Origin: Ginglymostoma cirratum
Taxonomy: Eukaryota
Assembly: GCA_024137785.1 (NCBI GenBank)
Contig: JAHRHZ010000018.1
Span: 36,612,543-36,676,542 of the forward strand
Reading direction: 5' to 3'
Length of the DNA: 64,000 nucleotides
Below, piece after piece: positions 18,315 through 31,362 of the stretch. A program made the translations under genes and the position numbers. Positions within the stretch are counted from its first letter, which is position 1. Each line of letters starts with the position of its first letter. The notes below the pieces were generated by a model. That model searched no databases, had not been told where the DNA came from, and saw nothing but the letters and a program-made list of their open reading frames with translations.

Positions 18315-20057
18315 ACATACAATATTTATAAAGACGGCAATTTAGAGAGTAGTGGTTTTGTCCCGTCAGTTCTTACTTCGACGCCTGGAGCTTTACACAG
18401 TCGAATCATTAAAACTTGAAACTTGTACCAAGGCATGGTGTATGCATCTTCCACCACAAGAAGTACTCAGACAAAGCATTACCAACCTCTCAGCCTGCAC
18501 CTGGTATTCAGTCAGTGAATGCAACACAGATTGAACTGTGCTGGTTTAAACCACTTAATGCAAATGGAAAAATAATGCAGCATGATGTGTTTCATAAAGG
18601 CAATAGACAAGCTTTCAGCTACCGTGAAAAGAAGGGAACTACTGATAGAAAAAGAGGTTGTATTTAGAGACTATGAAGCTGGCAAAGACGAATATGTATT
18701 CACTGATGGTAATTTAAAACCATGGTGAAGATATAAGTATAAAGAACCTGGTCAGAATTCTGAGATAACAAGGTGTGGAGCTGGATGAACACAGCAGGCC
18801 AAGCAGCATCATAGGAGCAGGAAAGCTTGACGTTTCAGGCCTAGACCCCCCGAAACATCAAGCTTTCCTGCTCCTCTGATGCTGCTTGGCCTGCTGGGTT
18901 CATCCAGCTCCACACCTTGTTATCTCGGATTCTCCAGCATCTGCAGTACCTATTATGTCTGGTCAGAATTCTGTTGGACATGCAGAAAGCCCATGGGTTG
19001 TTGTGAAAATCAGTCAGGGTGCATCTACTGGCCTTCCCGCTCCTGAGGTTCAACCAGATGTACCAGATAATCCACAAAAGATAGTAATTTCTTGGTCTCC
19101 TCCAGAAAGAGAAAAGGCAATAATGTTCTTTAGACCTACAGACTACAGAGGAATGAACTTCTTTTTGTTTCTGTTTTGATGCTTTAACATGAAGTTATAC
19201 AGATGAAGGCCTGCTCACATACGCGGTTTACAGCTATGCAGCAATTGCTTATACAGCAGGAGGCTTCTGTACCAGTACAACTACTAAAATACAAACAATT
19301 GAAACTGCTCCAGCTTTTGTGAGCCCTCCAATACTTCAGACTATTACTGCCACACAAATTAATGCTTCATGGATAGCAGCAGTAATTCAAACTGGAAGGG
19401 CTTCTGAAGGCAGATTACTCATTAATAATGAACATACCTGTTCTGGACAGAGGCTAACTATTGTAGTTTCTGGTCTAAAACCATACACGCAGTACTTTTT
19501 TTAATCTTATTTGCCTGTACTAACTGTGGTTGTACCTCCAGCTCATCTGTAAATAGTTGGACATTGGAAGCGCCTCTGTCTAATATGGTAAAACTCAAAC
19601 TACAAGTCACAGGATCAGAATCAAATGGAGTTTTGTGGACTGAACCAACCAATCCCAACAGGCAAATCAGAAGTTATGAACTCAGGCAGGATGGGGGGCT
19701 TATTTAAACAGGCCCAGAAACTTGATATCATGACATCACTCTGACACCAAGTGTGGAGTACAGTTATACAGTTGCTACCAATAATAACGAAGGAAGCTCC
19801 ACCAGCCCTCCCTCCAAAGCTAGGGCCGGCCCTTCAGCTCTTTCTGGAATGGCTCCTCCAAAATTATGTACATCGCCCTCTAGCGAGATCATAGTAAATT
19901 GGCAACCACCTGCTCAGGCCAGTGGAGTGACTGTCAACTACACAATGTTCTGTCTTGATTTCGCCACAATTAATCTTAAAGCTTTCATATTTTCTCCACC
20001 TGACACATTCTTTATGAGTCAATCCTTCATGTAAACAGGACAAACGTCATATTCCAG
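18315..20057 (+). pseudogene. USH2A: Usherin pseudo-exon homologous to the large FN3-repeat exon 63 of human USH2A; disabled
   Basis: Acceptor tttcgcAG, then TYNIYKDGNLESSG/LSRQFLLRRLELYT..LETCT../DKALPTSQPAPGIQSVNATQIELCW..NGKI../FTDGNLKPW*RYKY..NSVGHAESPW..NPQKIVISWSPPE/TYRLQRNE/SYTDEGLL..SGLKPYTQY/LFACTNCGCT..WTLEAP..LQVTGSES..QIRSYELRQDG..TLTPSVEYSYTV..PSALSGMAPPKL..EIIVNWQPP..VNYTMF. This is colinear with human usherin TYNIFSDGFLEYSGLNRQFLFRRL...LQVTGSES...QIRSYELRRDG...VEYSYTV (recalled). About 6 frameshifts; stops at 18726, 19190, 19705, 19723 and 20032; the donor reads ag|GAatgt. Confidence 0.95.
18763..18958 (+). mobile_element. Short Penelope-derived family A hairpin element inserted in the USH2A pseudo-exon
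   Basis: About 75 bp inverted arms (agataacaaggtgtggagctggatgaac...gacgtttc / gaaacatc...tccacaccttgttatctc). Perfect 15-bp TSD ctggtcagaattctg at 18748-18762 and 18959-18973. Confidence 0.92.
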
Positions 20058-23000
20058 GAATGTGGTAATAAACCTTTGTAATCTATGTAATATTTGTTAT
20101 CAAGGTCTAACCAGTACCAGAACACTGCTGGTTTCATTAAAGCATTAATTTTAAAAGAAGACAAATGGAGACAAAACAGTATTATCGTGTTAAATAAGGA
20201 AAAACAATACCTGTACCTGAACCTATGCAAACACGAGGAGTTAAATACACACAGCTCTGGATTAGATAAAAGTTCAACAAATTATAAACATTCACAACGA
20301 CACTTTGTGAAGAATGTAATCCATGAAACAATAATAGTAGCAGCAGAGTTTTGAATATTTCAACTAATAATAATTGTTTTTTGAATTAGATTTTTTTTGC
20401 CGAACTGGGGTTCAGGTAAGAGATACACATACAAAGCAAGCCCAACTAAGCACTTATTGACACACAATCCACCACAACAAACATTTGTTCTATGAGGATT
20501 CATTCTGTGCATCATCAACTACATAATTTAGAAATGTAACTTGGGAATTCTAGTTTGTGTAAAATGAGGAGAAACAGTGGATTGCATTGCTGCAGTGTTA
20601 ACTGCTATCAAATACAATTTACTCCAGATATTTAGAGTTTGCACGTTTTTCTTATTAATTTCATGCTCCCAACCTGTATGATATGCAGCTATGTGGAACT
20701 GTCACAGCAATTCCACAACTGCTGCTGATATTGAAGAGCTGCAACTAACATACTACCGTTGGCGTTCTTACAACAGAAAATAAGTGGTTAGGGGCTGGAT
20801 ACTTTCTAGGTAATGAAGAATTTACCATCGAATGTACAGCTGTGAAGAAACAAGTCACGGTGCAGATGTTGAAAAGGATTGTTGCCACTGGCCCAGAAAG
20901 ATGTTCTCCCTAAAAGACGCTGAGCAATAACCTCATAGCCAACATGTTGTATACTCTCACCAGCATCATCTTAAGGTAGATTTTTCCCATCTCAAGGTTA
21001 GCAAGAATGATGTCTTAATTAGGCAAGAGTACAAAAGTCAGATTGTCAACCTTAAGAAAAAATCACTTGATTAAATCCTCAAGCCTTTAATCATGAGTTC
21101 ACAATCTTGCTGTTGGGTAACGAGAAACTCACTTCCACGCATCTGCACGACATCAGTAGTCAATTGCGGTGTCTTAATATCACACTTCCAATCTTCCTCT
21201 TTGCAATCTATAAACTCAACGGTGCACAAAGCTGACTGATAAAACAGAGTGGTACCTGGTGACTTGTCTCATTAGCACTCATTGCAACTTGTGGAATGGC
21301 TGTGCTGGCCATGGTCAAAGGTCCTGGAACTCAGCATCAGCAAAGCAGGGGAATACCAATTGCAACAATATTGTTATGGGACTGCCCTATGACCAACCAG
21401 CAGTGTTTGTAAACAGAAAAATATTACATTCACTTAATCTTCAACTAATTTGTGACCATTAAAGCAACATTTTGGAGATCTGTGCCAGATATTCTGGGAG
21501 TTGCCAATACTCATAATGAACTGGACTACTCAGATTCCTGCTTCATATCAAGATTCTGGGACTGTCCAGGGGCGTTGATGGGAAATAAAGGCGCCTCCTC
21601 CAAAAGTGCTCATGATACCTATAGGAAACGCACAGGTAGGCAAAGAATGAACATACACTAGGGCTGTAGTGCAACAGGTCATCGGGCTCCTAAGAGTGAC
21701 GTTTTGATGCCTGGGCCTCTCCAGCAGGGTTTTGTAAGTAGACCTGACAAAAGGGGCAACATCCTGGACAACAACAAAATGGAGGAATGAGAGCAATCCT
21801 TTGAGGGTGGAGATGAGACTGAGTATCAAGGTCCAACAAGAGAAAGACAGAGCATTGTTTCAGAGAGCCCAAGGGGTTAGATACAGCCTCATTGTTACCC
21901 ACTTTCAGTATGCAAGAATGAGGTTGACATTCTGTTCATTGTTTGAGCATCTCAGTGACTTACCTGACAGACAGGATCCTGTTTAGTGTAAAGGACATGT
22001 CTAACTTGTAGGAGTTTCTGTTTTTCACATTTTGGTCTTGCTGATTACATGATACATCTTACATTTTAATATACAAGTGATATCTTCAGTTGAACCAAGA
22101 TTGAAGTAGCTGTGTATAACTTGCCCTAACATAGTTATAGGGAAAAAACAGTAGTGAGTGTGTATTAACATCACAAGGCACTAGATTTGTGCAGTTCTGA
22201 AAGCTTTGTCAAATATATGACATGTACTCATACACTTTATGTGTCATGTGCAGGCTGGTTCCACGTAAAAACTATCCATTTGGCATGAATTCTGTGAAAG
22301 CTCCTTCAGCCTCTTCCTTCATCAATGTCCCTTCAATGGTTTAGAGTGCACAGAGACAGTCCAATTACCTTGATATGTTTGAACAGCCTCTATGACAACA
22401 TTTAGCCTGTGAGAGGCAGCACTTTGTGTAAAATTTCTCTGCAGATTGGTGCATTATGAGAGACAATGATTACAAGAGCTGCCCAATTGTTACCTAGAAC
22501 GTCACTGCCCTCCTTTGAAAAGCTCATACATGGGAACAGCCTACCCACTGAGATGTGTGAAATCATCACTGATTCCATATCCTCACCCATAAAGATGGTA
22601 GGAAATGGTGAAAAATGTGTGCAGCCCAGGCACTGAATCACTCCCTGGACATTCCCTTTAGCCTCAGTACCCTCCACATTAACGTACAATGTCTTGGCTG
22701 GAGTCCTTAAAGCTAATGTTCAAGGATCTCTGACGTCTAAGGCTATCTGCAGTCAAAGGTTCGGATGCTCATGAGAGATAGGCACTGCATAGTGATTGCA
22801 ATGCTTACTCCTTGGGATGTATGAAACGCTCCTCACCTCTCACATGGGTGTGACTTAACCATGTTCCACATTAAAAACTGATACAACAGTGCAAGTTATA
22901 ATATATTGAGGAAAGTCATGGCTTATTTACAATGATGTAGTACAGTAGCACCGATGTGCATCAGTAAGTTTTTTTTTCCATTCTCTTTCCCCATTATAGC

Positions 23001-31056: not shown

Positions 31057-31362
31057 GAATGAAGTGTGCATTGAAGCTTGTATGGTCGCTGGTTGTGCTT
31101 CCAGTGAATGGGCCTTAGCACAAACTCCAGAAGTTCCACCTACTCTGCAACCCAGGCCTGTCTTTGAATTGCAGAGTGACACAAAAGAAATGTTTTTACT
31201 ATGATGGAGAGAGCCCAAAGAGCCCAATGGTGAATTACTGTATTATGAACTGCACAGAAGACAAGTCATACATCCATTAAGGGAAACAGAGTTGGTTCTT
31301 GTTTACAATGATTCTTCCTTTTTACTTCAGTGTTACTTCTTTTTGCTGCATATGAATATCAG
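31057..31362 (+). pseudogene. USH2A: Usherin pseudo-exon homologous to human USH2A exon 64; disabled
   Basis: NEVCIEACMVAGCASSEWALAQTPEVPPTLQPRP..LL*WREPKEPNGELLYYELHRRQV..VLVYNDSS/..YEYQ|gtgaaa versus human YEIRIQACTTLGCASSDWTFIQTPEIAP..PNGKVLYYELYRRQ..VLIYNGSS..YEYQ. TGA at 31202-31204, a frameshift near 31320, and the acceptor reads TG instead of AG. The phase-2 junction (AG|G) fits the upstream exon. Confidence 0.93.

Follow-up and report, generated by a model that had tools for sequence, protein, structure and literature searches.

The only copy of USH2A that we found in the nurse shark Ginglymostoma cirratum, a carpet shark, is destroyed over roughly 95% of the coding sequence. Its six last exons, in contrast, are intact. 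We lean towards the reading that the ectodomain part is a decayed pseudogene and that these six exons are still transcribed from an internal promoter, giving a membrane stub of 220 to 290 residues.

Results

A single USH2A locus at the ancestral place

The window, a stretch of 64,000 nucleotides of contig JAHRHZ010000018.1 (C18), lies entirely inside the locus (Table 1). A sequence-only reading had recognised two disabled usherin exons in it and left open whether they marked a unitary loss or a decayed duplicate. The usherin identity and the shark origin were borne out; 66 exon clusters run colinear over 940 kb and 4,800 of the 5,221 residues of intact Cetorhinus usherin could be placed. Four genome searches, three with protein queries (start, middle-to-end and tail) and one with DNA, returned this locus alone and no intact second copy, the search with sawshark usherin (P0001) having been run with a stricter first look. 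A nuclear-receptor exon at C18:35,658,603, identical to ERR-gamma at 88 of 90 residues, places the ERR-gamma gene (ESRRG), in the same orientation, 120 kb upstream; USH2A also adjoins ESRRG in other vertebrates, according to excerpts of PMC7617844. From 11 kb downstream, open minus-strand exons follow that are beta-propeller/WD40-like according to Atlas and had no Pfam match. This tail-to-tail neighbour may be KCTD3. The evidence supports this as the only USH2A copy found, standing at its ancestral place, and together with the lesions in common with a relative (see below) it argues for unitary decay and against a duplicate. No relative of usherin was found in the PDB.

Table 1. Features of the nurse-shark USH2A locus (window positions unless C18 is given) and reference usherins
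Feature	Position or accession	Strand	Remark
USH2A locus	G000:C18:35,778,080-36,718,431	+	940 kb; whole window (1..64000) inside
Decayed large exon	18315..20057	+	tandem FN3 repeats; 6 frameshifts, 6 stops, retroelement insert
Palindromic retroelement end with target-site duplications	18748..18973	.	196 nt (18763-18958) between 15-nt duplications
Dead splice donor	20058..20059	+	GA instead of GT, read in sequence
Dead splice acceptor	31055..31056	+	TG instead of AG; from sequence and codon phase of the alignment
Next decayed exon	31057..31362	+	one stop (31202) and one frameshift (near 31322); intact donor
Tail exon 1	C18 36,699,097-273	+	intact, outside window
Tail exon 2	C18 36,704,812-895	+	intact, outside window
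Tail exon 3	C18 36,707,155-384	+	intact, outside window
Tail exon 4	C18 36,710,100-171	+	intact, outside window
Tail exon 5	C18 36,717,218-433	+	intact, outside window
Tail exon 6	C18 36,718,342-431	+	intact, outside window
Intact isoform b, Cetorhinus maximus (basking shark)	XP_078412490.1		5,221 aa
Intact isoform b, Carcharodon carcharias (white shark)	XP_041063177.1		5,227 aa
Intact isoform b, Callorhinchus milii	XP_042189091.1		5,264 aa
Tail-only model, Stegostoma	XP_059504560.1		219 aa; 217/219 identical to nurse-shark locus
Tail-only model, Rhincodon	XP_048457102.1		134 aa
Tail-only models, Chiloscyllium	XP_043551740.1; GCC30851.1		195 aa; 356 aa
Tail-only model, Hypanus	XP_059841316.1		219 aa
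Tail-only models, Hemitrygon, Mobula, Narcine			219, 222, 220 aa

Lesions of the two exons in the window

In a frameshift-aware alignment to sawshark usherin, the two exons, whose boundaries follow from alignment and codon phase, together hold seven frameshifts and seven stops. The larger one, about 70% identical to residues 4142-4647 of Cetorhinus usherin, has frameshifts near 18357, 18466, 18632, 19117, 19167 and 19502, and stops at 18726, 19131, 19190, 19705, 19723 and 20032. We take the two exons to be the equivalents of human exons 63 and 64. The sequence-only reading had counted about seven frameshifts, and its six in-frame stops (five of those above and 31202) were all recovered; 19131 is an addition, and its reading hinges on the placement of the 19117 frameshift. 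The defective donor and acceptor that it had named were both read as such, and the retroelement is there as described, inserted between identical 15-nt target-site duplications (18748-18762 and 18959-18973). The insert is itself an 81-nt inverted repeat, and with its duplication it lengthens the exon by 211 nt and so disrupts the reading frame. Its matches occupy 108 distinct 300-nt bins within 1.03 Mb of sequence, one of them the 3' end of an element carrying a GIY-YIG-like frame, which we assume to be Penelope-like. One contig of organism B (run X5) departs from the window at 18962, a hint that the insert may be absent there.

These lesions are fixed and real. Contigs of organism A match the window with 0 differences (X1, 19661-19811 and 19907-20057; X2, 19898-20117; depth 2.5-3), the stops 19705, 19723 and 20032 and the GA donor included; they cover the 3' part of the larger exon, and the runs come from two samples and studies, though one of the runs could be the source of the assembly. 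Where it could be checked, then, assembly or sequencing error is not the explanation, as the earlier reading had argued. Organism B, a relative about 5.6% diverged, has the same three stops and three frameshifts in common, and the GA donor is present in its run X5 as in organism A run X2; whether it has stops 19131 and 19190 is uncertain from the differences listed. The decay substitutions in the two lineages are 13 synonymous to 22 non-synonymous, where 23-30% synonymous is the neutral expectation: decay is near-neutral and ongoing in both.

Decay along the coding length

Aligned to Cetorhinus, the locus carries 83 lesions (43 stops and 40 frameshifts) in 4,617 codons, with 41 of 61 exon clusters affected; aligned to Callorhinchus, it carries 41 stops and 36 frameshifts in 4,542 codons. 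The full-length frame from signal peptide to PDZ-binding motif is thereby broken. Lesions begin in the first coding exon, with a stop at codon 12 and frameshifts at codons 15, 27 and 97, and the N-terminal part of about 1,550 codons that corresponds to secreted isoform a contains many more lesions. Both known isoforms are therefore dead. The proposed loss of the long usherin thus stands for the ectodomain part, but the damage also extends to the short isoform; the proposed gene loss is not total, since the transmembrane and cytoplasmic exons are intact and conserved.

Own-lineage substitutions in the dead part reach 16.4% of 3,719 sites (4.0% in Cetorhinus), and identity to Cetorhinus is 70% upstream vs 84% in the tail. 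Some single exons of the dead part are nevertheless strikingly conserved, with 63/66 and 39/42 residues as in Cetorhinus. An automatic splice test missed a GT-AG pair in register at 19 of 54 junctions and at none in the tail, and these were not counted as lesions because alignment overrun inflates the figure. Two groups of exons that should be present were missing from intervals with N stretches, so their deletion cannot be claimed.

The kept tail

The six consecutive last exons span 19 kb, 23-42 kb past the window end, and in about 290 codons encode a transmembrane helix, a cassette exon and the PDZ-binding end. No lesion occurs in 267 aligned codons and the 24-codon cassette exon, where about 5 were expected (Poisson P about 0.005, optimistic like the other P values for the tail, which was chosen after data inspection); the longest run without lesion upstream is 202 codons. 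All splice sites are canonical and in phase. The cassette exon is presumably exon 71 of mammalian USH2A. The terminus, FTDTQL, is that of intact shark and chimaera usherins, and net charge is 0 before and +4 after the hydrophobic helix, a positive-inside flank.

Own-lineage changes affect 8.2% and 7.3% of 233 tail sites, half the upstream rate (P = 4e-4 and 9e-5), whereas intact references are alike in both parts (4.0-4.2% upstream, 4.3-4.7% tail). Identity to Chiloscyllium plagiosum is 249/264 (94%) in five tail exons vs 48/59 (81%) in the preceding exon (P = 0.003), and DNA differences to organism B number 5/306 in the last two exons vs 69/1,228 in the dead exon (P = 0.002). A gene with no part under coding constraint would thus not seem to fit USH2A here. 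The tail is not under full constraint, however. The last two exons do not differ significantly from their intron (5/306 vs 29/853, P = 0.16), and three of the five differences change a residue. The tail has 19 own-only changes where Cetorhinus has 10 (compared with the ratio upstream, P = 0.06; with Carcharodon as the reference, 0.03), and the transmembrane exon, with 11 of the 19 in 75 sites, is near the rate of the dead part. Measured against sawshark the tail is not slower (21:6 vs 149:35, P = 0.79), and radical changes are no rarer in it (7/19 vs 273/610, P = 0.64).

Discussion

A proposed stub usherin and its rivals

Support for the stub reading comes from the conserved sequence and from gene models that are predictions. 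According to it, selection on the 5,000-residue ectodomain would have ended in a carpet-shark ancestor, and an internal promoter would drive transcription of the six tail exons. Its start codon would be an in-frame Met that lies within, or shortly ahead of, the first two kept exons. The stub, predicted to run near 25-33 kDa, would lack a signal peptide and insert through its one helix, leaving basic flank and tail on the inner side. The usherin tail and PDZ domains are a textbook binding pair, and the terminal DTQL may keep binding whirlin/PDZD7-type scaffolds; ADGRV1 would in that case carry the extracellular link. The ADGRV1-type locus on C12 is open in the exons sampled, with 8/8 Calx-beta matches and one EPTP match without stops. 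Two PF21219 matches on C62, considered as whirlin, are probably harmonin. The 23.5 kb scanned for candidate first exons contain two ATGG|GT sites and no CpG island outside repeats. One of the sites, at C18:36,698,112, comes with a consensus donor, and a candidate first exon ending there, at 36,698,115, would yield the M-A start seen in the Rhincodon model or else continue in frame into kept exon 1; we treat it as no more than a lead, with a rough chance estimate of about 15%. No RNA run was listed for the dead exon. Three runs guessed to be RNA, X21, X23 and X24, have no cover of the last two exons, which counts neither for nor against expression; run X2 extends into intron and is therefore DNA.

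Tail-only database models of 134-356 aa come from three carpet-shark and four ray genera. Most begin at or beside the Met in the second kept exon. In each of the four carpet-shark species and four ray genera for which models were found, the 3' end is open, as at the nurse-shark locus. These models are predicted and filed under the normal gene name, and the loss of the ectodomain in rays and bamboo sharks is judged from their length only; they may be mere salvage of a dead gene by annotation software.

The main rival is a complete unitary pseudogene whose tail was released from selection later, or lies in slowly mutating DNA by the 3' end of its neighbour. We consider it rather doubtful, although a serious contender: the similarity of exons and intron, the residue-changing differences to organism B and the rate of the transmembrane exon all favour it, and since the Chiloscyllium plagiosum model reads through the exon preceding the tail, broken in nurse shark, decay may be stepwise. 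It leaves the missing lesions, the intact splice sites, the drop in Chiloscyllium identity at the adjacent exon and the same open end in sharks and rays to be accounted for. The tail might also be kept for another reason, for instance because it belongs to a read-through or non-coding RNA, or because its DNA regulates ESRRG or the downstream gene. The conserved exons of the dead part suggest that non-protein constraint may act at the locus, and excerpts of PMC7617844 describe conserved non-coding elements in the ERR-gamma region, but regulatory DNA needs neither frame, phase and splice sites nor a PDZ-binding motif, all kept by the six exons, and we regard this explanation as improbable. That the locus is a decayed duplicate, or an artefact of assembly, and that a working USH2A lies elsewhere is largely refuted and scarcely credible. 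The stricter first look of one search, the assembly gaps and the 421 unplaced reference residues (of 5,221) leave it some room; against it stand the single locus adjoining ESRRG, the lesions recurring in organisms A and B, and the open neighbouring genes and ADGRV1-type exons of the same assembly.

Comparison with known usherins

Mammalian USH2A makes a secreted isoform a from 21 exons and an isoform b from 72, exon 71 being inner-ear-specific, as described in parts of PMC9944904 and PMC8268283; those parts make no mention of a C-terminal-only isoform. The nurse-shark locus, which has an intact 24-codon cassette exon like the mammalian gene, can make neither isoform. Compared with intact usherins, lesions break the signal-peptide and laminin parts and every FN3-like part except the last. 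The truncation mutants described in those excerpts retain the N-terminus without the tail, opposite to the situation in the nurse shark. A unitary pseudogene is a gene loss without a duplicate. The locus resembles one in its single copy, ancestral place, kept exon-intron structure and near-neutral decay, but the loss is partial, with membrane anchor and signalling tail spared.

We found no published account of USH2A loss in sharks or other elasmobranchs, with 0 occurrences among the matches listed for syngnathid and carpet-shark literature and none in the supplements of PMC10620051 and PMC13100897; subscription journals and bioRxiv supplements could hold gene-loss tables. Inherited deaf-blindness is most often caused by USH2A, according to part of PMC9944904, and databases record usherins of 4,500-5,000 aa in animals ranging from Hydra and annelids to mammals. 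Sharks in which the ectodomain was gone before two species with about 5.6% divergence separated are natural knockouts of an ankle-link and periciliary component. We tentatively suggest, as an idea short of probable, a naturally occurring "mini-usherin": the ectodomain would have been dropped by carpet sharks and, independently, by rays, and both would keep a short PDZ ligand, anchored in the membrane and driven by an internal promoter. The tail would then have its own job, and so long as ADGRV1 is intact the ectodomain could be dispensed with. Should the tail still be made, the scaffolding and the extracellular roles of usherin are separable, which bears on the minimal size of a therapeutic usherin and on whether ADGRV1 alone forms the link. 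Seadragons, sea stickleback and Hoplias also have short models, a hint that the pattern may have recurred elsewhere.

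Loss of the usherin ectodomain

Some 1.03 Mb of contig C18 was aligned to two intact usherins, those of the basking shark (Cetorhinus maximus, 5,221 aa) and the chimaera (Callorhinchus milii, 5,264 aa). The alignment recovered 66 USH2A clusters in order, covering 4,800 basking shark residues. Relative to this protein, the 4,617 codons of the 61 upstream clusters contain 43 stops and 40 frameshifts; the count takes in lesions lying 5 or more residues inside an alignment, and intron overrun may account for a few of them. Because the lesions, present in 41 of the 61 clusters, begin at codon 12, both known isoforms, a and b (described in PMC9944904 and PMC8268283), are dead here. 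Moreover, with the chimaera as outgroup, private substitutions affect 16.4% of 3,719 upstream sites, versus 4.0-4.2% in two lamniforms, in a count that omits 3 of 64 clusters whose alignments ran into intron or repeat.

Within the window, which spans C18:36,612,543-36,676,542, the sequence-only reading had described two usherin exons with about 7 frameshifts and at least 6 stops, and this description held. As a query, an open 103-residue stretch within the first exon recovered sawshark usherin at 76% identity, and frameshift-aware alignment to that model (P0001) gave 6 frameshifts and 6 stops in the first exon and 1 of each in the second. The altered splice sites proposed between them (GT to GA, AG to TG) are present in the sequence, as is the retroelement insertion with target-site duplications: the first exon holds a 196-nt palindromic repeat flanked by 15-nt duplications, which matches the end of a GIY-YIG-bearing retroelement abundant in the region and presumably of the Penelope-like class. 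P0001 is open across both exons. This model has only 1,201 aa, about 60 of its N-terminal residues match repeats in the nurse shark assembly, and the 5' part of the sawshark gene may be split or broken too.

Positions of features at the USH2A locus and at an ADGRV1-type locus
Feature	Position	Remark
USH2A clusters	C18:35,778,080-36,718,428	
First decayed exon	window 18315-20057	
Second decayed exon	window 31057-31362	
Stops common to organisms A and B	window 19705, 19723, 20032	first exon
Frameshifts common to organism B	window 19117, 19167, 19502	first exon
+1 lesion private to organism B	window 19239	
Stop private to organism B	window 19789	
Laminin-EGF exon	C18:35,964,887-35,965,084	L093:2287-2484
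Highly identical exon	C18:36,356,028	44/52
Highly identical exon	C18:36,405,768	39/42
Candidate first exon	C18:36,698,082-36,698,121	in L103
Transmembrane exon	C18:36,707,155-36,707,384	
Repeat fragment	C18:36,718,440-36,718,545	would-be 3' UTR
Retroelement fragments, presumably reverse-transcriptase-type	window 39152-39595, 63064-63783	intron after second exon
Assembly artefact	window 11100-11210	about 50 nt duplicated either side of a 10-N gap
400-N gap	window 53444-53843	
ADGRV1-type exons	C12:40.34-40.56 Mb	one strand

Age and copy number

Sequencing error had been thought improbable given the number and variety of lesions. Where coverage exists, this is borne out: three contigs from two studies of organism A, whose sequence is that of the window (0 differences, depth 2.5-3), span three stops and the GA donor. 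In organism B, a relative represented by four contigs of run X5, 69 differences were found over about 1,228 positions of the first exon. The same stops and donor are unchanged there, and three frameshifts show no gap relative to the window. Organism B also has lesions of its own (a +1, a stop and a 6-nt deletion), each seen in one low-depth contig. The 37 differences listed for sequence outside the repeat include 35 that allow classification: 13 are synonymous and 22 non-synonymous, for a neutral expectation of 23-30% synonymous. From these shared lesions, private lesions and near-neutral substitution classes, we infer that the first exon died before the divergence of these species and has been drifting ever since.

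The sequence-only reading had left unitary loss and a decayed duplicate side by side. One DNA and three protein queries against the 4.36-Gb genome found no intact second copy. The 611-nt DNA query matched once and the tail query four times, always at this locus, which argues against a duplicate. P0001, searched with a stricter first look, gave 21 matches: 14 in the locus, 4 elsewhere at 28-32% identity, and 3 to its N-terminal 74 residues, which are largely unalignable with chimaera usherin. With a 66-residue laminin-EGF exon as query, there were 6 matches, 3 in the locus and 3 elsewhere at 42-49%. Open WD40-like exons, presumably of KCTD3, lie 11 kb downstream, tail to tail. The expected ESRRG flank is present: an exon lying 120 kb upstream, in the same orientation, is identical to ERR-gamma at 88 of 90 residues, and USH2A is reported as a single-copy neighbour of ERR-gamma (PMC7617844). 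As far as the assembly can be read, the decay is that of a single-copy, syntenic gene.

A spared membrane tail

The claimed loss of the long transmembrane protein stands for the ectodomain (83 lesions) and not for the whole gene. Stops and frameshifts are absent from the last six exons, and all their splice sites are canonical and in phase. These exons cover the final FN3-like segment, the transmembrane helix and the cytoplasmic part, include a cassette exon of 24 residues, and end in DTQL. On the sequence, the 3' end is intact while ectodomain decay is old. About 5 lesions would be expected there at the upstream rate (P ~0.005, for a region picked after seeing the data). Private substitutions drop to 7-8% of 233 tail sites, and the reference lineages show no rate change between tail and upstream. 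The tail matches Chiloscyllium plagiosum at 249 of 264 residues, versus 48 of 59 for the broken exon just before it, and its nearest named record is the Stegostoma tigrinum 'usherin' (217/219). As this record groups with Rhincodon and Chiloscyllium, we take the animal to be a carpet shark. Across the last two exons, 5 of 306 bases are different in organism B. Coding constraint on the tail is likely, not proven.

We consider it moderately probable that an internal promoter of the otherwise dead gene yields a stub of 219-290 residues. This protein would insert in the membrane with the tail inside and would keep the PDZ-binding motif. Most short models begin in the second kept exon, which contains a Met, and splicing into the first kept exon creates a further ATG. 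Some 980 nt upstream of that exon, in-frame ATGs are followed by a consensus donor; this candidate first exon would fit the Rhincodon model, which starts with M-A. In mammals the motif binds whirlin and PDZD7 (PMC7317166), and in zebrafish loss of the usherin tail alone displaced whirlin (PMC9944904); the tail therefore has a role worth keeping. That the entire gene is dead and the tail lags in decay is possible, if rather doubtful. Several results weigh against constraint on the tail: the sawshark comparison showed no slowdown of the tail relative to upstream, radical changes are no rarer in it, conservation of the last two exons does not significantly exceed that of their intron (P = 0.16), 3 of the 5 organism B differences are non-synonymous, and 11 of the 19 private changes fall in the transmembrane exon. 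Unitary gene loss is of a known kind; the sparing of the membrane tail is the variation on it, and our literature searches found no paper on shark USH2A loss with the tail spared.

Many changes in the transmembrane exon are conservative and largely common to Chiloscyllium (71/76 identical), not to lamniforms, a pattern that fits rapid change in the carpet-shark stem followed by stasis. A repeat fragment starts about 10 nt past the stop codon, and AATAAA occurs 210 nt downstream of that codon.

Usherin in other species and the partner gene

Tail searches returned short usherin models in carpet sharks (Stegostoma 219 aa, Rhincodon 134, Chiloscyllium 195 and 356) and rays (Hypanus 219, Hemitrygon 219, Mobula 222 and 83, Narcine 220). 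Full-length forms among the matches listed are those of Cetorhinus, Carcharodon and Callorhinchus, most 5,200-aa records falling outside these matches. In a tree of 13 tails, Stegostoma groups with Rhincodon and Chiloscyllium, the long lamniform forms are sister to carpet sharks, and the short label needs 2 changes, in rays and in carpet sharks. Two separate truncations would fit, on predicted gene models among the matches listed. Short 'usherin' models also occur in a caecilian (222 aa), Spinachia (215 and 227), Phycodurus (178), Phyllopteryx (234) and Hoplias (161) (P0084, P0088, P0089, P0090, P0179, P0180); in some of them the N-terminus does not resemble usherin, a hint of additional losses of the ectodomain or of a short isoform of general occurrence.

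An ADGRV1-type locus lies on contig C12, where 8 Calx-beta and 1 EPTP matches, the architecture of that gene, have open frames of 204-351 residues and no stops; the exons sampled are few, and intact ones are favoured among them. In the dead part of USH2A, the laminin-EGF exon is open and agrees at 63 of 66 residues with the usherins of the chimaera and of the basking shark alike. Two other exons are also highly identical, all three standing out, uncorrected, among 56 examined, and such exons are possibly regulatory elements of the ESRRG block.
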